Below, piece after piece: positions 20,242 through 64,000 of a stretch of DNA of 64,000 bases. Origin of the DNA: Bacteriovoracia bacterium (GTDB lineage: Bacteria; Bdellovibrionota; UBA1018; JBFWNL01); assembly GCA_050251055.1 (NCBI GenBank), contig JBFWNL010000001.1:697210-761209 (forward strand), in the 5' to 3' direction. The notes beneath the pieces are model-generated. The model worked only from the letters and a program-made list of their open reading frames with translations. It was not told the origin of the DNA and ran no database searches. The number at the start of each line of letters is the position of its first letter. The first letter of the stretch is position 1. Made by a program: the position numbers and the translations under genes.

Positions 20242-21065
20242 ACTTCGCGGAAGACCTTCTGGTGCAAGGGACCGAAGTGGTTCTGGTAATCCCCGACCAC
20301 GCCCTTGCGAAACGCCACGTTGCCCTTTTCTTCGCTGCCTTTGCGCCGGCCCGTGAGGCTTTCAAACGAAAAAACTTCAATCGCTTCGTCGATCAAGGCG
20401 TCGGACGCCTCGAAGTCGAGGTATTTCAAAATAGATTTCAACGCGGCCTTCGGATCCGAATGCAATGACTCGTAAGTCACTTTGTACGTGATGGAGATCT
20501 GTTCCCAAGCCTCATAGAACCCGCGCCAGCGCTTCGCCGTCACGTAGGCGTACGCGAGCTTGGAGCGTAAGAGCGACATCTTCAACGCCCGCAGGGGGTT
20601 CAAGCGCTCGCGTAGGCTGGGTCCCGCCACCGCGCCCGGGGCGTCGCGGCCGATCAGCATCGTTTGCGCGCCGGTTTCCACGTCGGTGCCCGTTTCGTTG
20701 CGCACGATCGCGCGCGCCTGGCCCGACACGGCCACGTCGCGCGGATCGCGCGCGAGCAAGATCACCTTATCGGTCAGGCTGAAGTACGGATCGGGAAGCT
20801 CGTGGGTCTTGATCACCATCGAGTACTTCGTCTTCTCGCGTCCGGGCAGGTTGCCCTGCGTGAGCGCGAGCGCCTTCGCGTTGCTGGAAAAAATAATCCC
20901 GCGCAGGAAAGTATAAGGCTCGATGTAACGCGCGTTTAGGATGTAGCAAAGCATGTAGCTGAGCCATCCCTGTCCGGAGCGGCCAAAGTCGGCGATGAGG
21001 ATCACGCGGTCGGAACCGTTGAGGAAGGGATGCTTGACGTTGCCGGGCTTGTTCTCTCGAGTCAT
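20202..21065 (-). CDS. PAPS-dependent sulfotransferase
   Basis: 5'-phosphosulfate-binding-loop-like ADFGRSGQGWL (compare PKSGTTW), IKTHELP, and 3'-phosphate-binding-like LLARDPRDVAVS (compare RNPKDVxVS). 287 aa. Confidence 0.8.
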   Translation of the reverse strand: MTRENKPGNVKHPFLNGSDRVILIADFGRSGQGWLSYMLCYILNARYIEPYTFLRGIIFSSNAKALALTQGNLPGREKTKYSMVIKTHELPDPYFSLTDKVILLARDPRDVAVSGQARAIVRNETGTDVETGAQTMLIGRDAPGAVAGPSLRERLNPLRALKMSLLRSKLAYAYVTAKRWRGFYEAWEQISITYKVTYESLHSDPKAALKSILKYLDFEASDALIDEAIEVFSFESLTGRRKGSEEKGNVAFRKGVVGDYQNHFGPLHQKVFREVCGEIASRWNYKL

Positions 21066-21168
21066 AAAGTCTAATAAAAAATGGGTAAAATCAGGGGTTT
21101 ATGGCGCATCTTAGTGGGTTTTACCCAGTAAAAACAACACAAAAAAACTGGACTGGGCCAGAATCCGC

Positions 21169-21813
21169 ATGCTACCTCCTAAGCAATCCATGAAACCCGC
21201 GATGATGTCCCCTCTCAAGCTAAACCTCGGTTGCGCATCGCGCCCCCTACCGGGTTACATCAATATCGATCTCGACGACGTCGCGACGATGAAGCGCCGC
21301 TACCCCAACATCCAGATCCCCGATCTGCCCATTTACCAATACGACATCTTCAAGCTGCCTTACGCCGATGGTACCGTCGACGAGGCCCGCGCCGACGCGT
21401 TCATCGAGCATCTCTCCTTTCTGGAAGAATCCAAGTTCTTCTACGAAATGAAGCGCATCCTCAAGCCCGGCGGCAAACTCTGCTTCTGCGTGCCGGACTT
21501 CGAGAAGGCGGTCGAGCAATGGCTGAAAGCCAAAGACGACTGGAAGGACTTTTACCGGTGCGACGACGAGGCCATCGCCCAGGCGCATTGGTTCGGAAAC
21601 TATTCCTACACCACGGAAAACCGCTGGGGATACCTCACCGCTTCCATCTTTGGGCCGCAGAATTCCCCCGGTCAGTTCCATAAGAACGCGTACACCGCGC
21701 GGAAAATCCGGGCGATCATGAAGAAGCTCGAGTTTAAGGAACCCAGCATCACGCCATCGCGCTGGAAGGGCGATCGCGACCACATGCTCGACGTGGTGGC
21801 GGAAAAAGCCTAA
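21169..21813 (+). CDS. class I SAM-dependent methyltransferase
   Basis: LKLNLGCASRPLPGYINID...ADAFIEHLSFLEESKFFYEMKRILKPGGKLCFCVPD (Methyltransf_11-like). It is the only plus-strand gene inside the long minus-strand run. An alternative start is ATG 21190. Confidence 0.75.
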   Translation: MLPPKQSMKPAMMSPLKLNLGCASRPLPGYINIDLDDVATMKRRYPNIQIPDLPIYQYDIFKLPYADGTVDEARADAFIEHLSFLEESKFFYEMKRILKPGGKLCFCVPDFEKAVEQWLKAKDDWKDFYRCDDEAIAQAHWFGNYSYTTENRWGYLTASIFGPQNSPGQFHKNAYTARKIRAIMKKLEFKEPSITPSRWKGDRDHMLDVVAEKA

Positions 21814-21830
21814 GGCCGCCGCCGTATCAG

Positions 21831-22766
21831 TTAAGCGCGCAGTCCCCGCAACAAATCAACCGTATCGGAAATTCCGCGATGGATATCACCTTGGGCGCGG
21901 AAGCCCTTCGCTTGGAAGCGCGCGCACGAAACTTCGTACGAGAGCTGGTTCATGATCTGGGTCTCGACGAAGTTGATCGTCAGGTCCGGTACGAACCCGC
22001 GGATCACATCGGTGATCTGCCGCACGGTGTAGTTGCCCGTCAGAACGTTATAGATGCGGCGATCGAAGATCCGCTCGCGCAGGATGAGTTCGATCGCGTT
22101 CACGGCGTCGCCCACGTCCAGGTAAGGCCGCTTCTGGTCATACGCGGTTTTCCAAACCGTAAGTGGCTTACCCGTCACGGCCTGCCAGCAGAACTTATTG
22201 ACCGCAGTGTGGAAGCGAATACCCGGCGAGATCCCGAAAATCGTACCGAAGCGGCAGACGATGAAAGGCAGCTCGGCTTTCTTTCCCAGCTCCGCGAGTA
22301 GGCGCTCTTCTTTAAGCTTCGTCTCCGCGTAAGGGCTTTGGGGATTCAGGTCGGACTCGGGACAGTCTTCATCGACCAACTCCGCCGCCGAACCGTAAAC
22401 ACTGGTCGACGAAAGGTAGAGCAACGGCACGCGCTGGCGCACGCACTCGTCGGCCACGCGCTGGGTGCCATAAAAGTTATTGCGCTCGACCTCGGCCTGG
22501 TTTTCGAAGCTGCCCGCGGCATTCGTGATCGCCGCGAGATGCAGGACAAAGTCAGCGCCCTTCACGAGCGGGCCAAGATCGATCTTCGTGACGTCGCCTT
22601 CGGTAAACCGATAGCGGACGCCTTCCGGTAGGTTGAAAAGCGAGCAGTAGCGCTGCGCCGACATATCATCGATGAGCGTAAGCTCCATCCCGGGAAACCG
22701 GGCCGGTAGCTCGCGAATCACGCGGGAGCCAATGTGCCCCAAGGCTCCGGTAACCAGGATTTTCAC
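21831..22766 (-). CDS. NAD-dependent epimerase/dehydratase-family (extended SDR) sugar ketoreductase/epimerase
   Basis: MKILVTGALGHIGSRV (GxxGxxG)...YLSSTSVYG...SPYAETKLKEE (YxxxK). Confidence 0.8.
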   Translation of the reverse strand: MKILVTGALGHIGSRVIRELPARFPGMELTLIDDMSAQRYCSLFNLPEGVRYRFTEGDVTKIDLGPLVKGADFVLHLAAITNAAGSFENQAEVERNNFYGTQRVADECVRQRVPLLYLSSTSVYGSAAELVDEDCPESDLNPQSPYAETKLKEERLLAELGKKAELPFIVCRFGTIFGISPGIRFHTAVNKFCWQAVTGKPLTVWKTAYDQKRPYLDVGDAVNAIELILRERIFDRRIYNVLTGNYTVRQITDVIRGFVPDLTINFVETQIMNQLSYEVSCARFQAKGFRAQGDIHRGISDTVDLLRGLRA

Positions 22767-23203
22767 GAGCGCGCTCCCTTCGCCTGCCCGCGGCGCCAGG
22801 CCAAGAACCCGTCGTAGTCCCGCAGGTAGTCAGACTCGTCATAATACTTGTCCGTGAGGACCATCAGCATCGTCCCTTCGTCCAGATAGGTTTGCTCCCC
22901 CCACACGGACGGCGGCAGATAGGCGCCCTGATCGGGCGAATCAAGGCGCAACGTACGCTTCTCTTTTCCGTCGTCGAAAACCAGGTCGCAGCGGCCACGA
23001 ATGCAAATCAGAAACTGCTGGCATTCTTTGTGGGCGTGCTTGCCGCGCAGGGCGCCGCCCGGAGTACCGTAGACGTAGAAAATGCGCTTAATGTCGAACG
23101 GGACGTTCCGCAGCTCCTCAAGCGCCACCAGGTAGCCGTTGGCTTCGGTGCCTATGCGCTTGAAGCGCTCGTGCTTGACGTCTTTTACCGTTTTCAGACC
23201 CAC
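22763..23203 (-). CDS. WxcM/FdtA-like dTDP-4-keto-6-deoxyhexose 3,4-ketoisomerase (cupin)
   Basis: GYLVALEELRNVPFDIKRIFYVYG...LRGKHAHKECQQFLICIRGRCDLVFDDG...LDSPDQGAYLPPSVW...MVLTDKYYDESDYLRDYDGF matches the FdtA/QdtA pattern, including the HAH pair. 146 aa. Confidence 0.82.
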   Translation of the reverse strand: MGLKTVKDVKHERFKRIGTEANGYLVALEELRNVPFDIKRIFYVYGTPGGALRGKHAHKECQQFLICIRGRCDLVFDDGKEKRTLRLDSPDQGAYLPPSVWGEQTYLDEGTMLMVLTDKYYDESDYLRDYDGFLAWRRGQAKGARS

Positions 23204-23224
23204 GCCACCGTCCCTCTTTGGCCC

Positions 23225-24463
23225 CTAGGCCGTGATGACCTGTACCTTCGGGACATACACGATCCACTTGCCGCCACTTTCCCGAAAGTCCTGCTCCTTG
23301 GCCGTAATCTCCTTGAAGTGGTTCCAGCCAAAGAGCAGCCCGTAGTCGGGATACTGCTCGCGGAACTTCTCGGAAGCCAGGATCGGGATGTGCTTGCCCG
23401 GGCTGAACTTACCCTGCTTGATAGGGGTCGAATCGCCGATGAACTCGATTAGGTCGGGAGTCAAATTGCAGTAGTTGATCACGGTCGTGCTCTTGGAAGT
23501 CGCCGCGTAACCGACGACGCGTTTGCCCTGCTGCTTGAGATCAACCAGGAGCTGGCGGAGCTCGCGCTTCGACGTCTCGCAGTTCTCACGGAAGCGTTCG
23601 TAGGTCTCCGCCTTATCGAGGCCGAGCTTCTTCTCAAACTCGACCTGCTCGCGCACGCGCTCGGAAACCGCTTGCACGCCCTTGCGCTTGATCACGTAGC
23701 GCATCGAACCCCCATGGGTCGTCTGCGGCTCGACGTCCACGATCTCCATGCCGTACTGGCCGAACATGTGGCCGACGGAGGCGACGGAATACAGGAACAC
23801 GTGCTCGTCGTAAATCTGGTCATAGGAAGTCTTCTGGATGACGTCGCCCAGGTACGGGTCTTCGAACATCACGGTGCCGTCCGGCCTCAACAACACGTCA
23901 ATACCTTCAAGCACCGAATGAATATAGCCGATGTGGCACATCACGTTCGCCGCCAGGAAGGCGTCCGCTTGCCCATTTTGGCTCACGATCCAGCGCGCGG
24001 TCTCGGCGTCGAAGAAGCGGGAGACGGTGTTTATGCCGCGGCCGATGGCGACGTCGGCGACGTTCTTCGAGGGCTCGATGCCCAGGTGGCGGATCTTCTT
24101 CTCGGCGAAGTTCTTGAGCATCACGCCGTCGTTGCTGCCGATCTCGACCACGAAAGGATCCTTCGCCTCGAGGTAATCCTTCATTACGTGGTCGGCGAAC
24201 TCCTTGAAGTGGATCGCCATGTGCTGGGACGTTCCCGAAAAGAACGCATAGTTCTCGTTAAACATGCGTTCGCGGTCCGGTTGCTCCATCAGCTGCACCA
24301 TCTTGCAGTGTGAACAGAAACCCACCTGCATCTCGAAGAAGTACTCGCGAGAGAAATCTTCGGGCTTTAGGAACCCATTAGCGATCGGCTGCTGCCCATA
24401 AGAGATGAACGGACTCACCGGGGCTTTACAGACTAAACATGGTTTTTCTTGCTTCGGATTCAA
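23225..24463 (-). CDS. NDP-hexose C-methyltransferase (TylCIII/EvaC-type, Zn-ribbon + class I MTase + C-terminal domain)
   Basis: N-terminal Cys4 ribbon (CLVCKAPV...CSHCKMVQL), ERMFNENYAFFSGTSQ, and SAM motif VVEIGSNDG. The C-terminal domain has a typical length (412 aa). Confidence 0.8.
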   Translation of the reverse strand: MNPKQEKPCLVCKAPVSPFISYGQQPIANGFLKPEDFSREYFFEMQVGFCSHCKMVQLMEQPDRERMFNENYAFFSGTSQHMAIHFKEFADHVMKDYLEAKDPFVVEIGSNDGVMLKNFAEKKIRHLGIEPSKNVADVAIGRGINTVSRFFDAETARWIVSQNGQADAFLAANVMCHIGYIHSVLEGIDVLLRPDGTVMFEDPYLGDVIQKTSYDQIYDEHVFLYSVASVGHMFGQYGMEIVDVEPQTTHGGSMRYVIKRKGVQAVSERVREQVEFEKKLGLDKAETYERFRENCETSKRELRQLLVDLKQQGKRVVGYAATSKSTTVINYCNLTPDLIEFIGDSTPIKQGKFSPGKHIPILASEKFREQYPDYGLLFGWNHFKEITAKEQDFRESGGKWIVYVPKVQVITA

Positions 24464-24498
24464 TTTCCGTCTCCTTCAAATAAAAACTAAGCGCGACG

Positions 24499-26397
24499 TC
24501 AACTGCAGCTCCGGCTGCTGACCTTCGCTAAAATGCCTTCCAAAATTTCCAACGCCTCACGGAACCCTTGTCCGCGGTTCAGGTGCCCTTGCCAAATTTC
24601 CGGGATAAAACCGGTATCTAGGCGATTCATGATCGCGAACAACGACGCGAAGTCGAGATCGCCTTGGCCGATCTGCACACCCTCGCCGGTCGAACCTTTC
24701 GAATCGGAAACATGCAGATAGGCGATGTGATCCAAGATGCGTTTCGTGAAGTCTTGCATGGAAATGCCGGCGTGGTGGCAGTAAAGGCCGGCGTGGGAGG
24801 TGTCGAAGCAAATCCCCCAACCCATGTCCTTCGCGAACTGGGCGATCTCGCCCGCGTCCATGAACACGGTGTTGTACCACTGACCGCCGAAGTACCAAGG
24901 CAGGGGGGGCATGTTCTCGACCAGGAGTTGCGTGCCCTCCGAAGGCATGGCTTCTAGGTTCTTCTTCAGAAGCTTATACTGATCGGTCTTATTGGATTCG
25001 GTCGGTTGGGCAAAATGCCCGCCCGGATGCACGACCACGCGCGGACCGCGGGGATCTTTCATGCCCTTGAACTTGGGCGCGAGTTCACGCGCCAAATTCA
25101 ACGTCCGCTTGAGCATTTCGCGGCTGAGCTCGGTGATCGCGGCGTCGCTCGAGGTGAAGTCAATGAGCTGGTCCTTATAATACTCGGGCGCGTGCACGAC
25201 TAAGTCTTGTTCGAACGTTCCCGCCGGTAGCCTATAGTCTTCGAGGTCCCGCCAAGTCAGATGGATCTCCACCAAACCCGGCTTGACGTCCAAGAACTCC
25301 TGGAAGTCGTTCAGGCGCCCCACGATCCCCCACTTCTTGGGAATAGAATAGGTACGCGGCTTCGCGGCCGGTCCGTCGACGACATCCTGCCGGAAAATAT
25401 AATCGTCCGCCGATAGGGCGCGATTCAGGGTCTTACCCAGGAAGTAATCAAGATCCATGGGCGAAACGCCCTTGGCCGGCGTCTTCGATGACAGATCGCC
25501 CGCCGTCAGCCGGTGGCCGACGGGCAGGTCCTTCGCCGCGACGAGCGACTTCGCCAAGCTGATGCGGTTATTCTTCTCGCCCTGGTTGTAAACCTTCTCG
25601 GCTTTGCCCAGGGACTCTTCGGCGACACGGACAGCATCGACCATTTCCTTGAACTCGGTAAAATTGAGCGACGAACGATGATCGGGACCGGACTGGTTGC
25701 GGTCACGCGTGATGTGGCGCTCGATGATGTCGGCGCCCAGGCCCAGCGCGGCCACGGTGGGAACAAAGCCCTGCTCATGGCCGGAATAGCCCACCCGCAC
25801 GCCCGTGATCTGGCGAAGCACCGGGATGTAGCGCAGGTTCAGATCGCTGAAGGAAGCGGGATAAGTGCTGTTACAATGCAGGAGCGCGAAATCCGCGCCG
25901 CGCGACTTGAGATATCCGACGACCTGCTTGATCTCGGCTTCCTCGCTCATCCCGGTCGAGAGGATGATCGGGCGGTTGAACTCCGTGATCTTCTCGAGCA
26001 GCGGCCGGTTCGTGAAGTCGGGCGAACCCACCTTGAAGATCCCCATGCCGATGCCGTTCAGGAACTCGGCCGATTTGACGTCGAACGGCGTCGCAAAGAA
26101 ATCGATGTCAAAACCTTTCGCGTACGCGAAGAGCTCCTTCATTTGATCGTAGCTAAGATGCGCCTTACGCAGCTCCGCCAGCAGGTACTGCGTCCCCTGC
26201 TCCGCTTTGCGCGAATCGGCCAACACCTGCTTGGTATAGAGCGTGTCGAGATCCCGCAACTGGGTCTTCACGGCGTCGGCGCCAGCTTCCGCCGCACCCT
26301 TAATCAGCGCCTTGGCTTCATCCATGCTGCCGTTATGGTTAATTCCAACCTCGGCGATGATGTAGACGCCGCGCTTGGATTTATACCGGGTGCTCAT
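24499..26397 (-). CDS. NeuB-type ulosonic-acid (sialic-acid-like) synthase fused to SAF domain and a xylose-isomerase-like TIM-barrel (AP_endonuc_2-like) domain
   Basis: aa ~10-290: VYIIAEVGINHNGSMDEAKALIKGAAEAGADAVKTQ...ILSTGMS...LLHCNSTYP...GYSGHE (NeuB). aa ~295-355: SAF-like (LVAAKDLPVGHRLTAGDL). aa ~365-632: LVEIHLTW...VVHAPEY...VVHPGGH...LLVENMP...CFDTSHA...LHVSDSKG, typical of sugar-phosphate isomerase/epimerase TIM barrels. Confidence 0.8.
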   Translation of the reverse strand: MSTRYKSKRGVYIIAEVGINHNGSMDEAKALIKGAAEAGADAVKTQLRDLDTLYTKQVLADSRKAEQGTQYLLAELRKAHLSYDQMKELFAYAKGFDIDFFATPFDVKSAEFLNGIGMGIFKVGSPDFTNRPLLEKITEFNRPIILSTGMSEEAEIKQVVGYLKSRGADFALLHCNSTYPASFSDLNLRYIPVLRQITGVRVGYSGHEQGFVPTVAALGLGADIIERHITRDRNQSGPDHRSSLNFTEFKEMVDAVRVAEESLGKAEKVYNQGEKNNRISLAKSLVAAKDLPVGHRLTAGDLSSKTPAKGVSPMDLDYFLGKTLNRALSADDYIFRQDVVDGPAAKPRTYSIPKKWGIVGRLNDFQEFLDVKPGLVEIHLTWRDLEDYRLPAGTFEQDLVVHAPEYYKDQLIDFTSSDAAITELSREMLKRTLNLARELAPKFKGMKDPRGPRVVVHPGGHFAQPTESNKTDQYKLLKKNLEAMPSEGTQLLVENMPPLPWYFGGQWYNTVFMDAGEIAQFAKDMGWGICFDTSHAGLYCHHAGISMQDFTKRILDHIAYLHVSDSKGSTGEGVQIGQGDLDFASLFAIMNRLDTGFIPEIWQGHLNRGQGFREALEILEGILAKVSSRSCS

Positions 26398-27376
26398 GAG
26401 CGTAATCCTTTTCCAAGCCTTGCTGGAACTTCATTTCGAACTGGATCATGCGATCGAGCATCTGCTCCAGATCGACGGTCGGTTTCCAGCCCAGATCCTG
26501 GCGGATCTTCGCGCTCGAGCCGTACACGGCGAGCGGCTCGTGCAACCGGAAGTACCGGGGATCCGCCTGCACGTGTTTCTCGAAATCGAGCCCCAGGCGG
26601 CCGAACACGGAGCGCAGCACGTGCTCGAGCGAGTACGATTGACCAGTGCAGATCAGGTAATCTTCGGGCTTGGCGGCCTTGAGCATGCGCCAGCAGGCAT
26701 CCACGTAATCGGGCGCGTAACCAAAATCGCGAATCACGCTCGCATTACCGAACTGCAAGGTCTTTTCCTTGCCGAGCTTGATACGGACGGCGGCGCGGAC
26801 CGCCTTCTTCGCCGCGAAGTTCTCGTGACGCCGGGGCGACTCGTGATTGAAGAACACGCCATTCACGGCGAAAAGTCCGTAGTTGCGCCGGTACGACGTC
26901 ACCATATGGTGCGCGTAAGCCTTGGTGCAGCCGTACGGGTTATACGGCGCGAGCGGGGTCGCTTCCGTCAGCGGCGTATCGCCCGACGGATAGAAAATCT
27001 CGGAGCTCGACGCTTGGAAGTAGCGGATGGAGCGATCGACCTTCAGGATCGCCTCTAACAAATGCGTGGGAATCACGCCCGAAGCGCGGAAGGTCTCGTC
27101 CACCATCTCCCACGACTTGCTGACGTAGACCTGCCCGGCGAAATTATAAACCTCGGTAGGCTTCACGGCCGCCAGGATTTCGGCTAGGTGGTGCGTTTCG
27201 TAGGACGAGTCCACGAGCTCGATCTTGCCTTCGAGGTGAGCGATGTTCAGCGAGAACCGGCGCGCAGGATCGCGCGTGATGCCGACGACGCGATAGCCGT
27301 TCTTCAGCAGGAGCTCTGACAGGTACGACCCGTCTTGGCCCGAGATCCCCGTAATGAGCGCGACCGGCTTTGCCAT
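26381..27376 (-). CDS. Gmd-family NDP-sugar 4,6-dehydratase paralogue
   Basis: ORF track 26381..27391. Likely start is ATG 27376 (MAKPVALITGISGQDGSYLSELLLKNGYRVVGITRDP). QASSSEIF, NPYGCTKAY and FNHESPRR match the Gmd pattern. This is the second Gmd-like gene in the window. Confidence 0.8.
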   Translation of the reverse strand: MAKPVALITGISGQDGSYLSELLLKNGYRVVGITRDPARRFSLNIAHLEGKIELVDSSYETHHLAEILAAVKPTEVYNFAGQVYVSKSWEMVDETFRASGVIPTHLLEAILKVDRSIRYFQASSSEIFYPSGDTPLTEATPLAPYNPYGCTKAYAHHMVTSYRRNYGLFAVNGVFFNHESPRRHENFAAKKAVRAAVRIKLGKEKTLQFGNASVIRDFGYAPDYVDACWRMLKAAKPEDYLICTGQSYSLEHVLRSVFGRLGLDFEKHVQADPRYFRLHEPLAVYGSSAKIRQDLGWKPTVDLEQMLDRMIQFEMKFQQGLEKDYAHEHPV

Positions 27377-28062
27377 CACCAGGCCGTCCATCCGCCGTCG
27401 ACGGGATACACACCGCCGGTGCAGTAAGAGGAGTCTTCCGCGACGAGAAACCGAACCAGGCCGGTGATTTCGTCGGCTTCCGCCATGCGGCCCATGGGCG
27501 TGCGCTCCGAATAAGCGCGCATGAACTTGTCATCCTGCTGATGCCGGATCCCGCCCGGCACGACGCAGTTCACGCGGATCTTCGGCGCCCAGTGCGTGGA
27601 GAGGTGCCGCGTGAGCTGCACGACCGAGGCCTTGGAAATTCCGTAGCCCAGATGCTTCTCGCCATCGTCATAGAGCGTGGGAATCGGCGAAGTCACGCCG
27701 TAAACCGAGGAAAAATTCACGATCGACCCTTGCTTATTCACCCGGGCGAACTCGCGACAGACCGAAAAGAGCGTGATCACGTTCGTCTCGAAATACTCGC
27801 GCAAGCTATCCAGCGTGATGTCCATCAGGCGCGTAGCCGGGCGCTGTCCGCCCGCCGCCACGTGATCGACCATCGCAAACAAGTTCACGAGCCCATCGGC
27901 CGGGTTCGCCGCGAACCACTCGCGGACGAACTTCGGATCGCGCAGGTCGTGCCCGAGAGCGAGGTCGAGTGCCAACACTTCGAACTCCGTCGCCAGCTTC
28001 GGGGTCAGGGCGCGGCCCACGATCCCGCGGGAACCGGCGATGATGACGCGTTTTCTCTTCAT
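27376..28062 (-). CDS. short-chain dehydrogenase/reductase (classical SDR)
   Basis: VIIAGSRGIVGRAL, NFSSVYG, YGISKASVVQL (YxxxK), VNCVVPGGI. 228 aa. Confidence 0.8.
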   Translation of the reverse strand: MKRKRVIIAGSRGIVGRALTPKLATEFEVLALDLALGHDLRDPKFVREWFAANPADGLVNLFAMVDHVAAGGQRPATRLMDITLDSLREYFETNVITLFSVCREFARVNKQGSIVNFSSVYGVTSPIPTLYDDGEKHLGYGISKASVVQLTRHLSTHWAPKIRVNCVVPGGIRHQQDDKFMRAYSERTPMGRMAEADEITGLVRFLVAEDSSYCTGGVYPVDGGWTAW

Positions 28063-29279
28063 TTCCCTTTGAACTTCTTGATCGTCTTACGCAGCACTTC
28101 GGCCTTCGTTTCGGCCAGGCGTACATCGCGATAGTTGGTCTTGAACTGCATCAAGCGCTTCTGGATGCGTTCCGCGACCGGGCAAAGCCCCGGGGCGTAG
28201 GAAACATCCTGATAGATCTGTGGCATGCGCGAGACAAACTTGCGTTCGGCGATCAGCGGTTCCAAATAAGGCACCGACCAGGCACCGTAGATCCCATCGC
28301 CGCCTTCTTGAATGTAGGCTTTGCGGAAATCCTGCCAGCTCACACCGATCGCTTCTTCGCCGTGATAGACGACGCCGAGCGTGTAGTACGAGTTATGGAA
28401 GCCGTCCGGCGTCTTCTGCGGGACAAGGTAGTCGCATTCCGACATAACATCCATGAAGAGCTTCGCGGATTTGATCCGCAGGTCCACCAAGTATTCCACC
28501 TGTTCGAGTTGCGCCATCGCGACCGCCGCGCAGAATTCCGGCAGGCGGTAGTTCCAACCCAGCGAATCGTGACGTTTGTAATTCGGGTCTTGGAAGACGT
28601 CCTGGTTTAAGCGGGTGCGGCCTTCGGAAGCACGCAGGTTTTTAAACCCATGCCCGCCGATCTTGCGTACCTTCTCGGCCAGGGCTTCGCTGTCGGTGAT
28701 GAGCATGCCGCCCTCACCGCAGGAAAGATGCTTGGTGTTCTCGAAGCTGAAGCTCGCGAGATCGCCGAACGTGCCGGCCAGCTGGCCCTTGTAGGTACCG
28801 AGCACGCACTGGGCGTTGTCTTCGATCACGGGAATATTATGCTTGCGCGCGATCTTCATGATCGGGTCCATGTCGGCCGGCAATCCGTAGAGCGAGACCG
28901 GCATGATGGCCTTGGTCTTCTTCGTGATCTTGCGCTCGAGATCGGCCGGATCCATGTTGAAGGTTTCCGCATCCACGTCGCAGAACACCGGGACCGCATT
29001 CGCGTGGAACGTAGAAGTGGTGTCCATGATCACGGTCAACGCCGGCGATATGACTTCATCACCCGCTTGCACCCCTACTGCTTCGAGGGCCGCATGCAAG
29101 GTAGCCGTGCCGGAGTTAAACGCCACCGCGTATTTCGTGTTAAATTTTTCGGCGAAAGCCTTTTCCAAAGTCTGCACCCAAGTGCCGCTCGTGGCGGACC
29201 AGGATTCGGAGCCCAACACCTTCGTCAGGTATTCCAGCTCGTTGCCTAGGTACTTGGAGGGATTTTCAATTTTTTGCAT
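28059..29279 (-). CDS. DegT/DnrJ/EryC1-family PLP aminotransferase (SpsC/LegC-like)
   Basis: AVAFNSGTATLHAAL...VISPALT...IEDNAQ. The Schiff-base lysine is present in FSFENTKHLSCGEGG. 406 aa. Confidence 0.85.
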   Translation of the reverse strand: MQKIENPSKYLGNELEYLTKVLGSESWSATSGTWVQTLEKAFAEKFNTKYAVAFNSGTATLHAALEAVGVQAGDEVISPALTVIMDTTSTFHANAVPVFCDVDAETFNMDPADLERKITKKTKAIMPVSLYGLPADMDPIMKIARKHNIPVIEDNAQCVLGTYKGQLAGTFGDLASFSFENTKHLSCGEGGMLITDSEALAEKVRKIGGHGFKNLRASEGRTRLNQDVFQDPNYKRHDSLGWNYRLPEFCAAVAMAQLEQVEYLVDLRIKSAKLFMDVMSECDYLVPQKTPDGFHNSYYTLGVVYHGEEAIGVSWQDFRKAYIQEGGDGIYGAWSVPYLEPLIAERKFVSRMPQIYQDVSYAPGLCPVAERIQKRLMQFKTNYRDVRLAETKAEVLRKTIKKFKGK

Positions 29280-30042
29280 TCCAGTTCTCCTTCAGGACTA
29301 ACTTGGTCTTGGCGACTTGGTTGTTTTTCCATTGCTCATGGAGATGACGGTTCAAGCCGATCACTTCGGGATGCTGATCCAGGTAAGCCACGATGTCGCG
29401 CAACCCGAAAGCGGGCTTCTGCGGCTTCAGCGCCTTCACGACGGCGTCGAAGAAGCGGAAGTCGTCTTCGTAATCCAGGGTCATGCGGATATCGTCACGG
29501 CAGAACACCGGGTCGGGCTTCTGCAGCAGCTCGTTGCGGAAAAGACCGGTGTCCTTGAAGTACACCCACATCATTTCGGTTTCTTCCGTGGCCTTGATCT
29601 CGCAAACCTTCTGGAGGGCGGCGGCGGAAATTCCGTAAGTGAAAGCGCCGCAAATTACTTCCGGGCTCTCGATGAAGTCGGCACCGGTACGATCGTGCTG
29701 ATCAAACGCTTGATCCATGAGTTCGGGCTCGCAAAACAGATCATCGCCGTCGGCGGTTACGAAGAAGTCGACGCCGTTGGCTTTACAGGCCCCGTTCCAG
29801 CGCTCGAGCTTGTCCTTCACGCTGCCTCGAAAAACCCGCACGCCGTTCTTTTCGGCGAGCTGGCAAAGCACGTCGTCTTCCGGCAGCGTCGTCGTGCAAA
29901 GAACCACGAAATTCGCACGCTTGGAGCGTAAGGCCCGTTGCATCACGTATTCGATCGTGGTGAGGCCCATGATCGTCTTCAATGCCTTCTGAGCCAAGCG
30001 CGAAGACCCCGTTCTTACGGTAATAAATATGGCTTTGGTCAC
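29266..30042 (-). CDS. acylneuraminate/SpsF-type cytidylyltransferase (CTP_transf_3-like)
   Basis: AIFITVRTGSSRLAQKALKTI...VVLCTTTLPEDDVL...FVTADGDDLFCEP, typical of CMP-sugar-acid synthetase/SpsF proteins. 258 aa. Confidence 0.75.
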   Translation of the reverse strand: MTKAIFITVRTGSSRLAQKALKTIMGLTTIEYVMQRALRSKRANFVVLCTTTLPEDDVLCQLAEKNGVRVFRGSVKDKLERWNGACKANGVDFFVTADGDDLFCEPELMDQAFDQHDRTGADFIESPEVICGAFTYGISAAALQKVCEIKATEETEMMWVYFKDTGLFRNELLQKPDPVFCRDDIRMTLDYEDDFRFFDAVVKALKPQKPAFGLRDIVAYLDQHPEVIGLNRHLHEQWKNNQVAKTKLVLKENWNAKN

Positions 30043-30170
30043 GGTGAGGTTTTACTCATTTAGCCGAGGAAATGACAACCGTTTTGCATCATTTACAGGC
30101 ACCGATACTTGACTATTTCCATTTAGTAGTTGGCTTGTCCATCGCATTCAGCTAACCCTAAATCATCCCC

Positions 30171-31925
30171 ATGCCACGCATACACGAACTGACTCAGTTT
30201 TTAGGTAAAAAGACGCTTTGGCTCATGGTCATGGGCGTCTTCACCGGCATAACGCTATTTGGCATCGAAATTTTTTTCGCGCAAACGATCGACGTTTTCC
30301 TGCAGGCGATTGGCGGCACGCCGGTCGAGTCGATCGCCCGTTCTTTTCTCATCACCTGGCTCCCCTTAAACGGATTCACGAGCGTCTTGGTGTTACTCGG
30401 GACTTTGGGCGCGATCCGCGGCCTACTCCAATGCGCGCAAGTTTACTTTCCCAGCCTCACGGCCGAAGAGCAACGCTTCGTCCATCGCGGTCGCGTCTTA
30501 CACTGGGCCTTTCGCAGTCATTCCGCCAATAGCGGCGAGATCATGACTTTATTCAGCGATACGACTTCGGGCGCGGCGACCGCGATCTTGAGCGTACAAG
30601 CTTTGGCCGCCCTGATTCCCGTCGCCCTGCTGCTCTGGGTAGGCTTGCTTCAGATCGCGATGATGCCTACCCTGATCGTCACCGGCTGCTTGGCGCTACT
30701 CGCGTTGGGGCTGAAGGCGCTCGATTCCATCACCCAACGCGCGGGCGTGCAGGTTGCGCGCGAAGGCGCCGCGATCAACGCCAACGTCCTGGCTAATATT
30801 AAAAACCTGCTGCTAATGCAGATTTACGGGACCGAAGCCAAGGAAGCGAATCGCGTGGAGGCAAGCCTCGCGAACTACTATCGCCACAGTCATCTCCAGC
30901 TCGTGCTCATGAGCGCGAAGTACGCCATCCCGCAGATCTTCGGCGTCGTCCTCATCTGCATCATCACCGCGGCCGCGCTCCAAGGCCCGGATCGTCTACC
31001 GGCCGGCGTGCTGATCGCCTATTTTTACCTGTTCGTGCGTTTCGTGCAGAACGTTTCGGAAATCCTGCGGCAGCTCTCTTTCATCGAATACTACAAGCCG
31101 CACCTCGTCCGCATGTTCGGCTGGTGGAAACAGAATGGGCAAGCCGCCCAAGCCTTACGGTTGGCGGTCCCATCCGCGCAGGTCCCTCCCCTACTCACCG
31201 GCCCGGGCGGCACGGGTTGGCGCCTTAAAGAGGTCGAGTTCCGCTATCCCGACGCGGCGGCTCCCGTGCTCCAAAAACTTTCGGCGGAGATCGCCCCGGG
31301 CGAAACGTTCGTGATCGTGGGCCCTTCCGGATCCGGCAAGTCGACGCTCGTGTCTTTGCTTCTAGGTAACCTTCAACCCAGCTCGGGGGATGTGAAACTC
31401 GTCGTGAAAGACGAGAAAGGTACGGAAAACTTCCCGCTCGCCGAGGTGCGTGCTCGTTTCTTAAAAACCGTCGGTTACGTCGGTCCCGAGAGCTTCCTGC
31501 TCGCCGGCACAATCCTGGAAAACCTGACGTATGGTTTGGATCAGATGCCTAACCCCGCGCAGATTGAGCGCGCCCTGCAGACGGCGGAATGCCAATTCGT
31601 GTTCGAACTCCCCAAGGGCACGGCCCATCTGATTTCCGAGCAAGGCCAGGGGTTGTCCGCCGGCCAGAAGCAACGTCTCGCCCTGGCGCGCGCCCTCTTG
31701 CGTAATCCCACAACACTGATCTTGGACGAGGCGACGGCGAATCTCGATCTCGAGACAGAACAACGGCTCGTGAACACTTTAAAGAAGCTCAAGCACAAGA
31801 TGACCATCATCGGCGTCACGCATCGCCAAGCGCTGCTCGAAATCGCCGACCATACGTTGCGTCTGGAAGAATCTACTCAAACAGCGGGTGGCCCGCGGCC
31901 ACGAATTCCCGCAAAAACTCTTTAA
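30171..31925 (+). CDS. ABC exporter, fused TMD-NBD half transporter (MsbA/PglK-like)
   Basis: About 6 N-terminal TM segments. Walker A is GPSGSGKSTL, the signature motif is LSAGQKQRLALARAL, and Walker B is LILDEATANLD. The 3' end overlaps the convergent gene by 53 nt. Confidence 0.88.
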   Translation: MPRIHELTQFLGKKTLWLMVMGVFTGITLFGIEIFFAQTIDVFLQAIGGTPVESIARSFLITWLPLNGFTSVLVLLGTLGAIRGLLQCAQVYFPSLTAEEQRFVHRGRVLHWAFRSHSANSGEIMTLFSDTTSGAATAILSVQALAALIPVALLLWVGLLQIAMMPTLIVTGCLALLALGLKALDSITQRAGVQVAREGAAINANVLANIKNLLLMQIYGTEAKEANRVEASLANYYRHSHLQLVLMSAKYAIPQIFGVVLICIITAAALQGPDRLPAGVLIAYFYLFVRFVQNVSEILRQLSFIEYYKPHLVRMFGWWKQNGQAAQALRLAVPSAQVPPLLTGPGGTGWRLKEVEFRYPDAAAPVLQKLSAEIAPGETFVIVGPSGSGKSTLVSLLLGNLQPSSGDVKLVVKDEKGTENFPLAEVRARFLKTVGYVGPESFLLAGTILENLTYGLDQMPNPAQIERALQTAECQFVFELPKGTAHLISEQGQGLSAGQKQRLALARALLRNPTTLILDEATANLDLETEQRLVNTLKKLKHKMTIIGVTHRQALLEIADHTLRLEESTQTAGGPRPRIPAKTL

Positions 31926-34089
31926 TCGGCGGCGCGACCATGTGGGCCGGCACGCCCGCCGCGCTCAGGATCGCCTCGCGCACCTGGGTCGCGCTCAAAG
32001 ACTCACGGCGCGAAGCCGGGTGAGCGCAACTCTCGGTCACTTGCCCACAATCCGCGCAGTAGTAAGCGGCTTCAAATAGGATCGGCTGGATGCCGATGTC
32101 GCCTAGTTTACCGAAAATTTCCTGGGAAGCGTTGGCGGAATAATAATTCCCGACGCCCGTGTGATCGCGGCCCACCACGATGTGGCTGCAGCCGAAGTTC
32201 TTGCGGCAGATCGCGGTGAAGGCGGCTTCGTGCGGGCCCGCGTAGCGCGGATACGTATTGAATACTCCCAAGACCGCCGGATACGGGGCATAGAGATCTT
32301 CCTTCAAGGCGACGTCATACGCGCCCAAGATCGCCGGCGCCGTGAAGTCACCCGCTTTTTTTGGCCCGATCACGGGGCTGATGAAGAGCGCGTCCGCGTT
32401 CGCGCGCTTGAGCGCCTCACGCTGGATAAAGAGATGGCCCGCGTGCACGATGTTGCGGGTATGGAACGCCACGATCGTCCGCCAGCCCATCGTCGAAAAG
32501 AGCTTGCGCGACTGGCGCGGAGTCAGAAAATGCGGGGACGGCGCGGCGGAGCGCTCGAACGCCCGGAAAACCTCGCCGCTGATAATAAACTTACCCTTAT
32601 CCCGAAAAGCCGTGAACCCGGGATGCTTCTGATCGTGGGTACCGAACCAGCGCTCGCCGACGGAGACGAGGTCGATCTCCTCGACGGCCGCGACTTTAAG
32701 GTATCCACAGGCACGCGCTTCCCCGGGCGCCTGGAGCGCAACCCATTGGCCCGCTTTCACCGCCGGCTTATCCACCGACTGCAGGAGAATCGGCATCGTC
32801 CAGATCTCGCCGCTCGCGCAGCGGTTATCGTCGACGACACGCGCGAGCTCGGCCGCGCCCATGAAGTGCTTAATCGGCGAATAGACGCCTTCCACGATCT
32901 GCAGGACGTCGAGCGCCGTGCGCTCATCGATCGCGAGCTTTGGCCAGGTGGCGGCATTCGCCACGGTTTGACCGGGCGGTGTCGGTTGCTCGACCAGCGT
33001 TCCTCCGTGGGGCGCGATCAATCCGCCGTCGGAGCTACTTCGAATGAATTGGAGCGTGGTCTGATCGCTCCCCGCTTGGACTTGACCCGCGTAGCTGCCC
33101 ACTTCGCGGATCGTCTGGCGGATCATGCGTACCGATTCGACGGGGTACTTCCCGATCGCGGTTTCGGCGGCGAGCACCAAGCCCGAGGCGCCGTTTAAGA
33201 GCGTGTTGGTTACGTCGTTAATCTCGGCGCGGGTGGGCTGAAGATTGTTGAACATGCTTTCGAGGAGGTTCGTGGCCACATAAGTGGGCGTACCGGCCGC
33301 GGTCGCGCATTGAGTGATGTATTTTTGGGCAAGCCCGATCTTCCAGATGTCCACATCGCGCGAGAGGTCGCCGCGGTCGATGAGAATGGCGTCGCTGACG
33401 CCCAAGATCTCGGCCAAGTTGGCGAGCGCGGCCGTGCTTTCGACCTTTGAAATGATCGTGACGGGACAGCCGAAAAACTCGCGCAGCCACTTCACATCGG
33501 CGCCCCGAGAAGCGAACGAAAACGCCACGTGTTTTAGCCCGTGCTGCTTGGCAATGGCGAGCGCGGCCCGGTCTTTTTCGGTGAAGGGCGGCAGTTCGAC
33601 CAGACGGTCCAGGCTTACCCCTTTGTTGCTGCCCACTAACCCGCCCGCTAGCACGCGGCCGTGCGCTCCTTGAGCATCCACGGCCGTGACTTGAATCACC
33701 GCGGAGTTGAAATCCAGATGCAAGACATCTCCCGCATGCAGGAGCTGCGCGGGATCGATGGGATAAAGCGGGATCACGGAATCGGTGCCGGTTTCTTGCG
33801 CGCCGACGAACCGTACGCTCGCTCCCCGCCTAAGGGTGGTGGTCCCTTCTCCCATACGGCCGGTACGGATCTGTGCGCCTTCGGTATCCACACAAAGGGG
33901 CTTCTTCGTCCACTGCGAGACGTTGCGGATAATCTCCGGCAGTTTCTCGGCCGGGGTGTGAGACATATTGATGCGAAAGACATCCACCCCTTCGCGATCC
34001 ATCGCCTCGACTTTACGGCGATCCATGGACGCGGGTCCTAGGGTCACCAGCAATTGAATATCGGCGGGCTTTTCTACCGGAAGCTTCAT
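31873..34089 (-). CDS. pyruvate-kinase-like barrel domain fused to ATP sulfurylase (sulfate adenylyltransferase)
   Basis: N-terminal half: VDVFRINMSH, VDTEGAQIRTG, IISKVES, LIDRGDLS, QPTRAEINDV, AAETAIGKYP (PK A/B domains; no PK C domain). C-terminal half: PUA-like region, then AFHTRNIVHAGH, GPKKAGDF, VGRDHTGVGNYY (Sat). Single uninterrupted 738-codon ORF. Confidence 0.85.
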   Translation of the reverse strand: MKLPVEKPADIQLLVTLGPASMDRRKVEAMDREGVDVFRINMSHTPAEKLPEIIRNVSQWTKKPLCVDTEGAQIRTGRMGEGTTTLRRGASVRFVGAQETGTDSVIPLYPIDPAQLLHAGDVLHLDFNSAVIQVTAVDAQGAHGRVLAGGLVGSNKGVSLDRLVELPPFTEKDRAALAIAKQHGLKHVAFSFASRGADVKWLREFFGCPVTIISKVESTAALANLAEILGVSDAILIDRGDLSRDVDIWKIGLAQKYITQCATAAGTPTYVATNLLESMFNNLQPTRAEINDVTNTLLNGASGLVLAAETAIGKYPVESVRMIRQTIREVGSYAGQVQAGSDQTTLQFIRSSSDGGLIAPHGGTLVEQPTPPGQTVANAATWPKLAIDERTALDVLQIVEGVYSPIKHFMGAAELARVVDDNRCASGEIWTMPILLQSVDKPAVKAGQWVALQAPGEARACGYLKVAAVEEIDLVSVGERWFGTHDQKHPGFTAFRDKGKFIISGEVFRAFERSAAPSPHFLTPRQSRKLFSTMGWRTIVAFHTRNIVHAGHLFIQREALKRANADALFISPVIGPKKAGDFTAPAILGAYDVALKEDLYAPYPAVLGVFNTYPRYAGPHEAAFTAICRKNFGCSHIVVGRDHTGVGNYYSANASQEIFGKLGDIGIQPILFEAAYYCADCGQVTESCAHPASRRESLSATQVREAILSAAGVPAHMVAPPIKEFLREFVAAGHPLFE

Positions 34090-63925: not shown

Positions 63926-64000
63926 AGGGGCCCCACAGCTATACCCCCAACGGGAGGCCTTCGACAAGGCTATTCCGAGACACCCGTAGACCTGTCCCTT

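Follow-up and report, generated by a model that had tools for sequence, protein, structure and literature searches.

A five-gene operon around a NeuB-TIM-barrel fusion, predicted to make a CMP-activated nonulosonic acid by a route unlike the Neu, Leg and Pse pathways

The stretch of DNA analysed here, referred to as the window, comprises 64,000 nucleotides from a Bacteriovoracia bacterium (positions 697,210 to 761,209 of contig JBFWNL010000001.1) and carries, on its minus strand, five overlapping genes that we interpret as an operon for a nonulosonic acid (NulO) activated with cytidine monophosphate (CMP). The block begins with a cytidylyltransferase of a type that we call CT2 (29266-30042, 258 aa from a GTG start), a predicted CMP-nonulosonate synthetase. 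It is followed by a pyridoxal phosphate (PLP)-dependent aminotransferase (AT) of the DegT family (28059-29279, 406 aa), by a classical short-chain dehydrogenase/reductase (SDR) of the PtmA/PRK09186 type (27376-28062, 228 aa) and by a Gmd-like extended SDR, the second paralogue in the window of guanosine diphosphate (GDP)-mannose 4,6-dehydratase (26381-27391, 336 aa, or 331 aa from an alternative ATG). The last gene (24499-26397, 632 aa), the hallmark of the system, encodes a fusion in which a NeuB domain, condensing phosphoenolpyruvate (PEP) with an aldose (residues 31-268, 25594-26307, PF03102), precedes an antifreeze-like SAF domain with an altered substrate-loop motif (residues 283-339, 25381-25551, PF08666) and a TIM barrel of the AP_endonuc_2 family (residues 345-632, 24502-25365), a predicted bi-metal phosphoesterase. 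The first-pass annotation, made from the sequence alone, had proposed these five genes and their identities, including the classical SDR and the fused TIM barrel, and all of this was borne out. All five open reading frames (ORFs) were confirmed, with overlaps of 14, 4, 16 and 17 nt between neighbours from CT2 to the fusion, the third being reduced to 1 nt if the Gmd-like gene starts at TGATG. Pfam scores lie far over the cut-offs for all five proteins (CTP_transf_3 59 bits, DegT_DnrJ_EryC1 275, adh_short_C2 102 and GDP_Man_Dehyd 306; for the fusion, NeuB 258, SAF 37 and AP_endonuc_2 85). The GTG start of CT2 is taken as correct because both the Pfam match and the nucleotide-binding motif (RxGSxRLxxK, here VRTGSSRLAQK) start at residue 5, 5' of the alternative ATG.

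The same gene order was found again in a metagenome contig (L097; related loci are given L numbers throughout) by a metagenome scan seeded with AT, with amino-acid identities of 55, 70, 56, 55 and 60% for CT2, AT, SDR, the Gmd-like protein and the fusion, respectively. Because the complete order is kept in this unrelated contig, we regard the block as an evolutionary unit and not as a product of chance. Upstream of the block, L097 carries a canonical Gmd (72% identity, 8 kb away) and a weak ATP-binding cassette (ABC) exporter match; downstream of it, none of the other genes of the window was found. In the window, a 128-bp intergenic region (30043-30170) separates the operon from the divergently transcribed exporter gene and would probably hold the promoter. 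A scan of 21000-30400 for promoters and terminators gave matches no more numerous than in shuffled sequence, among them a single, weak sigma-70-like match (minus strand, 30141-30112) that is no better than those in shuffled sequence, and since shuffled sequence scores alike the scan is uninformative on the operon boundaries. Extension of the operon by the three genes that follow it (a C-methyltransferase at 23225-24463, FdtA at 22763-23203 and an extended SDR at 21831-22766) was rejected, as L097 lacks them and so do nearly all fusion loci. Along with RmlA, RmlB, RmlC and another DegT protein of the window, they fit a deoxythymidine diphosphate (dTDP)-sugar pathway, and we therefore treat them as a separate module.

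The synthase domain of the fusion is of the NeuB type and not of the Kdo8P/DAHP type. It belongs to the NeuB family by PF03102 (257.7 bits versus a cut-off of 22.1) and reaches 311.1 bits with TIGR03569 (NeuB_NnaB, the N-acetylneuraminate/legionaminate synthase equivalog), under the cut-off of 399.65, and 251.7 bits with the PseI model, under 340.25, as against only 20-25 bits (E 9e-6 to 4e-4) with DAHP synthase models. Its best matches in the PDB are PseI, SpsE and NmNeuB, DAHP synthases being matched at E 1e-5 or weaker. The NeuB metal-binding motifs GYSGHE and IERHIT are kept in 71-78 of 78 family members. The SAF loop reads K(S/T)P(G/A)(K/R)G across the family, where the one canonical NeuB compared has IRPGYG. 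The closest homologues of the fusion, at 66% identity, come from Oligoflexia and Bdellovibrio-like bacteria, and some fusion proteins have an extra N-terminal CBS pair. In a Paceibacterota locus (L041, 8039-10837, plus strand), CT2 itself forms the N-terminal part of a 932-aa triple fusion, CT2-NeuB-SAF-TIM, a direct link between CT2 and whatever the fusion makes.

To our knowledge, every characterised NeuB-type synthase has a hydrolase partner, acting either upstream or downstream of the condensation, and the three known bacterial routes, to neuraminic (Neu), legionaminic (Leg) and pseudaminic (Pse) acids, all require an enzyme of the NeuC, LegG or PseG type. NeuC, LegG and PseG act before the synthase and release the free aldose from uridine diphosphate or GDP; haloacid dehalogenase (HAD) phosphatases act after it, removing the terminal phosphate in the animal N-acetylneuraminate (Neu5Ac), Bacteroides ketodeoxynonulosonate (Kdn) and ketodeoxyoctulosonate (Kdo) routes. 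Genes for these steps were sought by a Pfam scan of likely-gene ORFs picked among those of at least 140 aa. In this set, which extends neither to short ORFs nor to the genome outside the window, there was no acetyltransferase of the hexapeptide or GNAT kind, no Epimerase_2 (NeuC/LegG) protein and no HAD phosphatase; Polysacc_synt_2 (PseB type) was the best family of none of its members, giving only weak secondary matches on the extended SDRs at 15440-16432 and 21831-22766. Ten window ORFs with no Pfam match were scanned against NCBIfam and included no sialyltransferase-like or PseG-like protein, and tblastn with E. coli WecB and RffC gave no match in the window or in 87 related loci (WecB at E <= 1e-3). 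The first reading of the sequence, which had seen neither an N-acetyltransferase nor a hydrolysing 2-epimerase of the NeuC/LegG type, is thus upheld over this range, and neither gene was found within the 64-kb window or beside the 87 related loci.

We infer that the TIM domain fills this gap. An AlphaFold (AF2) model of it, built from 31 sequences, has a predicted local distance difference test (pLDDT) score of 93. With a family profile, its best solved relative by sequence is MJ1311 (3wqo, E = 6e-14), followed by structures of endonuclease IV (Endo IV), and its top NCBIfam models are those of nfo/deoxyribonuclease IV. Foldseek places MJ1311, UlaE, Endo IV and ketose 3-epimerases all at template modelling (TM) scores of 0.6-0.7, and since these match equally the fold alone cannot decide the function of the domain. 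In a profile alignment, TIM residues H457 (in an HPGGH motif), E494, D532, H535 and H562 align with H109, E145, D179, H182 and H216 of E. coli Nfo; H402 and E600 were assigned to Nfo H69 and E261 by shared motifs (HAPxYY..LID versus HDSYLIN, and PEIW versus LETI). Seven of the nine Endo IV metal ligands are kept, versus the four (E-D-H-E) of sugar epimerases. The remaining pair, Nfo D229 and H231, is lost in a deletion, which rules out a full trinuclear Endo IV site; the match to TIGR00587 (Endo IV family) is 29.7 bits, under the cut-off of 129.65, and the complete set of nine ligands is likewise not found. The E-D-H-E quartet of the ketose 3-epimerase/UlaE type is present (E494, D532, H562, E600), with one epimerase model matched, at 19.4 bits.

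The domain thus has the barrel fold of MJ1311 (PDB 3wqo) and Nfo and the motifs HxP, HPG(G/S)H, xEN, DT(S/C)H, H-x-x-D and E, and differs from them in the D229/H231 deletion, in a long family-specific loop (ENMPPxPWYFGGQW) and in being always coupled to NeuB. From the 2014 structural work of Uechi and colleagues, MJ1311 is said to have all nine Endo IV ligands and to lack the DNA groove. Endo IV, for its part, also has 3'-phosphatase activity. Among 78 fusions, two classes can be distinguished: class I, which includes that of the window, has H457 and E494, and class II has N or S and Q, respectively, at these positions together. All seven Endo IV ligand positions are invariant within class I, and D364, E377, H379, H402, E405, D532, H535, H562, D565, E572, E600 and H605 are kept in both classes. 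A plain ketose 3-epimerase was downgraded as a candidate by the Endo IV-type histidines and by the subclade with Gln in place of Glu. Since the domain is closer to endonuclease IV and MJ1311 than to sugar isomerases, it is a likely substitute for the missing hydrolase. The simplest reading is that it is a predicted metal-dependent phosphoesterase and the hydrolase partner of NeuB.

NeuB and the TIM domain travel together far beyond the Bacteriovoracia. A scan of one genome per GTDB species detected the TIM domain in at least 577 loci; in all 80 of those that were fetched, NeuB is fused just upstream of it. Carriers include Pelagibacteraceae (SAR11), Nostocales and other cyanobacteria, Leptospira ognonensis, Nitrospinota, Planctomycetota and many Patescibacteria; among those in culture are Dulcicalothrix desertica PCC 7102, Nodularia, Dolichospermum and L. 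ognonensis. By a protein search, NeuB-SAF-TIM proteins of full length were found in Oligoflexia, Verrucomicrobia, phyla of the candidate phyla radiation (CPR) and marine metagenomes. When 1.84 billion cluster representatives were searched exhaustively with phmmer, the TIM domain was matched by 653 clusters at 50% identity (E <= 1e-3), some of which are stand-alone proteins of ~275 aa. Both of the stand-alone genes that were looked up (L176 and L177) lie immediately 3' of a separate NeuB-SAF gene, in L176 with a 4-nt overlap. As the two parts are fused or encoded by adjacent genes in the loci examined, NeuB and the TIM protein would always work together, usually as a fusion. On the sequences at hand, it is the NeuB-TIM fusion that is conserved at the centre of a widespread family.

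To describe the company of the fusion, all ORFs within 7 kb of it were clustered in 82 loci. A cytidylyltransferase is present in ~69 of them, either NeuA-like ('CT1', 51 loci) or of the window type (CT2, 18 loci clustered separately which, with the fused copy of L041, make 19). PtmA-like SDRs and extended SDRs occur in 39 loci each, SAM (S-adenosylmethionine) methyltransferases in 27, aldo-keto reductases (AKRs) in 18, DegT-family proteins in 17 (full-length orthologues of the window AT in 11) and class III aminotransferases in six. Four architectures recur. In cyanobacteria, Wzm-Wzt genes are followed by CT1 and the fusion and then, in L063, L075 and L080, by a GT38 polysialyltransferase-like gene. 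Saccharibacteria and Andersenbacteria have the order cyclase-fusion-methyltransferase-SDR-AKR-YhcH-CT1, and YhcH family genes are present in CPR fusion loci. Verrucomicrobia have Gmd-like-fusion-CT1-DHDPS, the gene after CT1 in two Verrucomicrobiales loci (L004 and L017) being an aldolase of the DHDPS/NanA family. The window type, CT2-AT-SDR-fusion with a Gmd-type gene directly before or after the fusion, is found in Paceibacteria, Kaiserbacteria, a gammaproteobacterium and SAR11. The gene after CT1-fusion in the Wzm/Wzt loci of Rivularia, Nodularia and Trichormus is alpha-2,8-polysialyltransferase-like (PF07388, 101 bits), which hints at a poly-nonulosonate capsule in heterocystous cyanobacteria. 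In four further loci (L077, L086, L026 and L018) the fusion stands among genes for a GmhA-like SIS isomerase, a CBS-GHMP kinase and an NTP-transferase, with no GmhB; this GDP-heptose-like set could provide a heptose precursor for a 10-carbon ulosonic acid.

CT2 is a member of the CMP-ulosonate cytidylyltransferase family by PF02348 (59.4 bits versus a cut-off of 22.6, residues 5-150). It is matched weakly by the KdsB and PseF models, reaching neither equivalog (PseF 20.8 versus 205.7), and its single PDB match is 6oew, a 'cytidylyltransferase'. Orthologues at 41-56% identity adjoin AT in nine loci (L036, L044, L048, L050, L067, L074, L078, L097 and L101). AT scores 275 bits with PF01041 and remains under the cut-offs of both LegC (TIGR04181, 212 versus 420) and PseC (203.7 versus 423.5). 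Its best PDB matches are GDP-perosamine synthases (Caulobacter, 4e-57, residues 11-263); KdnA, the transaminase of 8-amino-Kdo (Kdo8N) synthesis, matches over nearly the full length (9e-48, residues 36-390). The PLP lysine, K183, is invariant in an alignment of AT relatives. The SDR (adh_short_C2, 102 bits) has PRK09186 as its best NCBIfam match, is matched by FlagModPtmA too, and has the motifs AGSRGIVG, NFSS, YGISK and, at its C-terminus, DGGWTAW. The three genes keep each other's company: an aminotransferase is found in 14 of the 19 CT2 loci, the SDR in each of the 11 loci that have a close, full-length relative of the window AT, and also in five of the six loci where a class III aminotransferase replaces DegT in the same position. 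As this set is seen both with and without a Gmd-type gene, CT2, AT and SDR behave as a portable tailoring module. For the same reason, the idea that AT is simply a GDP-perosamine synthase fed by the Gmd-like enzyme is weakened: AT, SDR and CT2 occur without Gmd, or with a class III enzyme in place of AT.

The Gmd-like protein scores 306 bits with PF16363, and its best PDB matches are GDP-mannose 4,6-dehydratases (1e-72). It reaches 272.8 bits with TIGR01472 (the Gmd equivalog) against a cut-off of 415, its catalytic motifs nonetheless being kept: S-x-E (SSSE), YxxxK (PYGCTK) and NHESPRR are all present. It is a second paralogue, as had been proposed, since the canonical Gmd of the window (2655-3668, 495 bits with PF16363) is only 39% identical to it. 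Orthologues are found immediately 5' of the fusion in L004, L007, L011, L012, L017, L018, L019, L021-23 and L097, and the gene is directly 5' of the fusion in 11 of the 17 members of the subclade to which the window fusion belongs, mostly with neither AT nor SDR. Judging from this pattern of occurrence, the Gmd-like gene is a separate, optional second module, independent of CT2, AT and SDR. In L044, L054, L055 and L078, canonical or third-type Gmd genes directly adjoin the fusion. These associations together suggest that the precursors derive from GDP-mannose.

Together, these results lead us to a scheme in which the five genes act as a single operon whose product is a CMP-activated NulO and whose route is unlike those to Neu, Leg and Pse, and we put the probability of this scheme as a whole at about 0.4. 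It is, by itself, very probable that the operon belongs to a variant, so far uncharacterised CMP-NulO system with the NeuB-TIM pair at its centre. The Gmd-like enzyme would modify GDP-D-mannose at C4/C6, giving a GDP-4-keto-6-deoxy or GDP-6-deoxy hexose. The TIM domain, as a metal-dependent phosphoesterase, would then free the manno-configured aldose from its nucleotide in place of NeuC, LegG or PseG, and the NeuB domain would join it to PEP to give a 9-deoxy, Kdn-type nonulosonic acid. The PtmA-like SDR and AT would put in one amino group, a keto group being made or used and then transaminated, and CT2 would convert the acid into the CMP-sugar, destined for the sulfated, methylated polysaccharide of the surrounding locus. 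The candidate product is thus a CMP-linked, mono-amino, 9-deoxy, Kdn-type nonulosonic acid. It had been suggested from the sequence that a variant route may lead here to a nonulosonic acid or a related keto-deoxy acid, and this is supported. The synthase is of the NeuB type, and the Leg and Pse equivalog models scored on the operon proteins, including LegB (TIGR04180, 57.1 bits versus 475), all remain under their cut-offs.

The role assigned to the TIM domain follows from three observations: no NeuC-like gene was found in the searched loci, KdsC-like HAD phosphatase genes occur in only five of the 82 fusion loci, and an Endo IV-like metalloenzyme is always attached to NeuB. It is placed before NeuB in the window operon because of the translationally coupled Gmd-type enzyme, as a 6-deoxy sugar cannot carry a 6-phosphate, and no 2-epimerase would be needed because a GDP-mannose-derived sugar already has the manno configuration used by NeuB enzymes. 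Precedents for the amination step are KdnB/KdnA in Kdo8N synthesis and perosamine synthase. Since AT and SDR occur without Gmd, and since a class III enzyme can serve instead of AT, we incline to the view that it is the ulosonic acid that is oxidised and transaminated; in this operon, GDP-4-keto-6-deoxy-mannose might instead be transaminated to GDP-perosamine. A sialic acid-like product is supported by the GT38 polysialyltransferase-like gene directly after the fusion in cyanobacteria and by the YhcH genes of CPR loci.

Several observations weigh against the scheme. Orthologues of AT also adjoin short NeuB genes that lack SAF and TIM domains (L095, L096, L099, L101 and L124), where their partners include radical-SAM/SPASM, GFO/IDH/MocA, AKR, RmlD-like and PseB-like proteins. 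The role of the SDR is ambiguous beside a Gmd-type keto donor. A canonical Gmd accompanies the Gmd-like gene in the window and in L011, L017 and L097, and in the verrucomicrobial loci L004 and L017 the protein encoded upstream of the fusion has Gln in place of the catalytic Glu of S-x-E (STSQ and SSSQ), which suggests a different chemistry there, oxidation or 4-epimerisation without dehydration. On both counts the Gmd-like enzyme may not be equal to Gmd, and we doubt that its gene is a redundant Gmd copy. Some loci carry an APH-type kinase and a KdsC-like HAD phosphatase, others heptose-like genes, so that precursor supply varies across the family; these sets suggest that at least some of its members use phosphorylated or heptose precursors. 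As to the TIM domain, the Nfo D229/H231 pair is deleted, keto-sugar and ketose epimerases (UlaE, L-ribulose 3-epimerase and YcjR) are about equal to Endo IV by Foldseek, and 18 of the 78 sequences, mostly cyanobacterial, form class II, in which H457 is changed to N or S and E494 to Q, the rest being kept. Because the other invariant residues are all there, class II would still be under selection, probably with an altered metal site, and this change is hard to fit with a single, fixed bi-metal hydrolase mechanism.

Some of this evidence would suit a Kdn-9-phosphate-type route, in which NeuB joins PEP to a phosphorylated aldose such as mannose-6-phosphate, the TIM domain removes the terminal phosphate in place of the HAD phosphatases known from the animal, Bacteroides and Kdo routes, and the acid, free or CMP-linked, is modified afterwards by the Gmd-like enzyme, SDR and AT, unless these make a different sugar. 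A synthase followed by a phosphatase is the established logic of NANS/NANP, of Kdn9P synthase and its phosphatase and of KdsA/KdsC, and the Endo IV-like ligand pattern of the TIM domain is in keeping with the 3'-phosphatase activity of Endo IV. For the minimal loci, made up of a cytidylyltransferase and the fusion with or without the polysialyltransferase-like gene, a common metabolite would suffice; the GmhA, GHMP-kinase and NTP-transferase genes of L077 and L086 come with no GmhB-type phosphatase; and KdnA, to which AT is similar, transaminates a free ulosonic acid. We nonetheless consider this route unlikely, since the 6-deoxy product of the coupled Gmd-like enzyme, which retains the motifs of a GDP-hexose dehydratase, excludes a 6-phosphate, yet the TIM residues are invariant in exactly that subclade, and since the five loci with separate KdsC-like HAD phosphatases also retain an intact TIM domain. 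Another possibility is that the TIM domain is an epimerase or isomerase, which is the usual chemistry of the AP_endonuc_2 superfamily. It would ready the aldose for NeuB, for instance by 2-epimerisation of a free aldose or by epimerisation of a 4-keto-6-deoxy sugar, or else rearrange the product. The canonical quartet E494, D532, H562 and E600, the Foldseek matches at TM 0.6-0.7 to UlaE, L-ribulose 3-epimerase, D-allulose 3-epimerases and YcjR, and the pairing with a dehydrogenase (SDR or Gmd-like), which recalls the logic of YcjS/YcjR, are all consistent with this. However, the best sequence models are nfo and MJ1311 and not epimerases, the additional Endo IV-type histidines H402 and H457 (HPGGH) are invariant in the class of the window, a two-base epimerase would be inactive in class II with Gln for one of its two would-be catalytic glutamates, and the release of the GDP-linked sugar would be left unexplained. 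Such a role thus appears improbable to us.

The operon might also hold two unrelated pathways side by side, the Gmd-like enzyme and AT making GDP-perosamine or a related GDP-amino sugar for a different residue of the polysaccharide, the fusion and CT2 an unmodified Kdn-like CMP-sugar, and the SDR belonging to either. Glycan loci often interleave pathways, the downstream C-methyltransferase/FdtA/reductase genes being such a separate module here, and the best solved relatives of AT are GDP-perosamine synthases, next to a Gmd-like protein that looks like a functional GDP-mannose dehydratase. Against this, all five genes overlap, and AT, CT2 and SDR adjoin NeuB with no Gmd within 10 kb in eight loci (L036, L048, L067, L074, L085, L095, L096 and L101). 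Class III aminotransferases take the position of DegT, and the Gmd-like gene lies directly 5' of the fusion without any AT in L004, L007, L011, L012, L017 and L018. The odds of two separate pathways are accordingly poor. Finally, NeuB-, DegT-, cytidylyltransferase- and PtmA-like proteins are all known from Leg clusters (PMC4481668), as would be expected if the operon were a standard legionaminic or pseudaminic pathway with its acetyltransferase and hydrolase encoded in another part of the genome. We hold this to be extremely improbable: every equivalog fails (score/cut-off in bits: LegB 57/475, LegC 212/420, PseC 204/423.5, NeuB/LegI 311/400, PseI 252/340 and PseF 21/206), the dehydratase is of the Gmd family and not of the LegB, PglF or PseB type, the window and the 87 related loci gave no NeuC-like gene, and L009/L010 and L033 carry the fusion system beside a separate canonical NeuB cluster, which is Pse-like in L009/L010.

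The operon sits within a very large surface-glycan locus, with many GT2, GT4 and WecG glycosyltransferases, an initiating sugar transferase, several methyltransferases and the divergent ABC exporter gene (30171-31925, plus strand). Directly downstream of the operon (21831-24463, minus strand) are the C-methyltransferase (Methyltransf_13/14), an FdtA-like 3,4-ketoisomerase and the extended SDR mentioned above, with RmlA, RmlB, RmlC and the second DegT nearby (14577-16432 and 18003-19100, minus strand; 34708-35235, plus strand); these look like a pathway to a branched-chain (C-methyl), possibly 3-amino, dTDP-6-deoxyhexose. On the other side, a 738-aa protein (31873-34089, minus strand) combines a pyruvate-kinase barrel (PF00224, residues 12-320) with PUA_2 and ATP-sulfurylase domains, a fusion that looks unusual, and is followed by an adenosine phosphosulfate (APS) kinase (34086-34619, minus strand). 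With the nearby sulfotransferase (20202-21065, minus strand), this suggests a dedicated supply of phosphoadenosine phosphosulfate (PAPS) for a sulfated glycan. A carbamoylated sugar is suggested by carA/carB, a NodU/CmcH-type carbamoyltransferase and two GFO/IDH/MocA oxidoreductases (46086-50475, minus strand; 50816-52651 and 52673-54642, plus strand). The window also encodes two paralogous membrane proteins of the LIC_10190 family (NF047510; 7075-8718, minus strand, and 39304-40959, plus strand; 194 and 162 bits) and a third DegT paralogue of 657 aa (61994-63967, minus strand), with ~260 residues beyond its aminotransferase domain (PF01041, residues 23-396). Five long ORFs have no family match (8742-10772, 11606-13264, 16515-17999, 44371-45903 and 1167-2585), and some of these could be a candidate polymerase, flippase or NulO transferase.

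The logic of CMP-nonulosonate biosynthesis is already known; what would be new here is a different hydrolase partner and precursor supply. Sialic acid-like sugars shape the encounters of cells with phages, predators and immune systems, and genome surveys keyed to NeuC, PseG or LegG would overlook the fusion family, which would extend to SAR11 (among Earth's most abundant bacteria), to cyanobacteria that form blooms and to CPR bacteria that depend on hosts. An activity of the TIM domain, if shown, would move the finding towards a new enzyme function: release or dephosphorylation by this domain would be a new function on an old DNA-repair scaffold, and the marker of an unrecognised family of surface sugars. 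More specifically, and with considerable doubt, the domain may be a new kind of GDP-sugar phosphoesterase whose fusion to NeuB defines a fourth, GDP-mannose-fed NulO route. If true, this route would give undescribed sugars, such as a mono-amino 9-deoxy Kdn, a '5-hydroxy analogue of legionaminic acid', and would operate in SAR11, heterocystous cyanobacteria, Verrucomicrobia, Bdellovibrio-like bacteria, Leptospira and many CPR bacteria. We found no description of a NeuB-TIM fusion in the published literature: a large NeuB phylogeny (PMC8208679) makes no mention of any fusion, and a 2026 preprint on undescribed CMP-activated ulosonic acids in environmental bacteria establishes the existence of such sugars but draws no link to this gene family.

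Among known systems, the first-pass annotation had been reminded of the GDP-linked CMP-legionaminic acid route of Campylobacter jejuni (LegB, LegC, LegH, LegG, LegI and LegF with PtmA/E/F). The likeness holds for the four enzyme families that the two share, namely a NeuB-type synthase, a DegT aminotransferase, a CTP_transf_3 cytidylyltransferase and a PtmA-like SDR, and both probably use GDP-linked precursors. It does not extend to the dehydratase, which is of the Gmd family and not LegB, or to LegH and LegG, which are missing from the operon, and the synthase is here fused to an Endo IV-like TIM barrel. The precursor in the operon would probably be manno-configured with one amino group, unlike the 2,4-diacetamido precursor of C. 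jejuni.

In the Kdn9P route of Bacteroides thetaiotaomicron, a Kdn9P synthase, a HAD phosphatase and a CMP-Kdn synthetase act in turn, NANS/NANP being the vertebrate counterpart. The Kdn and Neu5Ac-9-phosphate routes resemble the operon in having a NeuB-type synthase, then a phosphoester hydrolase and a cytidylyltransferase, with a non-acetylated mannose-type sugar as precursor, and cyanobacterial loci with a cytidylyltransferase and the fusion come close to a minimal Kdn-route gene set. The operon differs from them in that its hydrolase would be a fused TIM metalloenzyme and not a HAD protein, and in its coupled, 6-deoxygenating Gmd-like enzyme, which misfits a 6-phospho substrate. In the Kdo8N route of Shewanella (KdnB and KdnA; PDB 5k8b), a dehydrogenase and a DegT-family aminotransferase are paired as in the operon; the KdnB alcohol dehydrogenase and the KdnA aminotransferase convert a hydroxyl of the ulosonic acid to an amine before CMP activation. 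Here, a classical SDR takes the place of the iron-dependent alcohol dehydrogenase, and a NeuB-type synthase would give nine carbons, not eight. The GDP-perosamine route (Gmd with Per/RfbE), lastly, shares with the operon a Gmd-family dehydratase followed by a DegT aminotransferase, but the Gmd of the operon is a divergent paralogue, and its AT accompanies NeuB, CT2 and SDR even where there is no Gmd.

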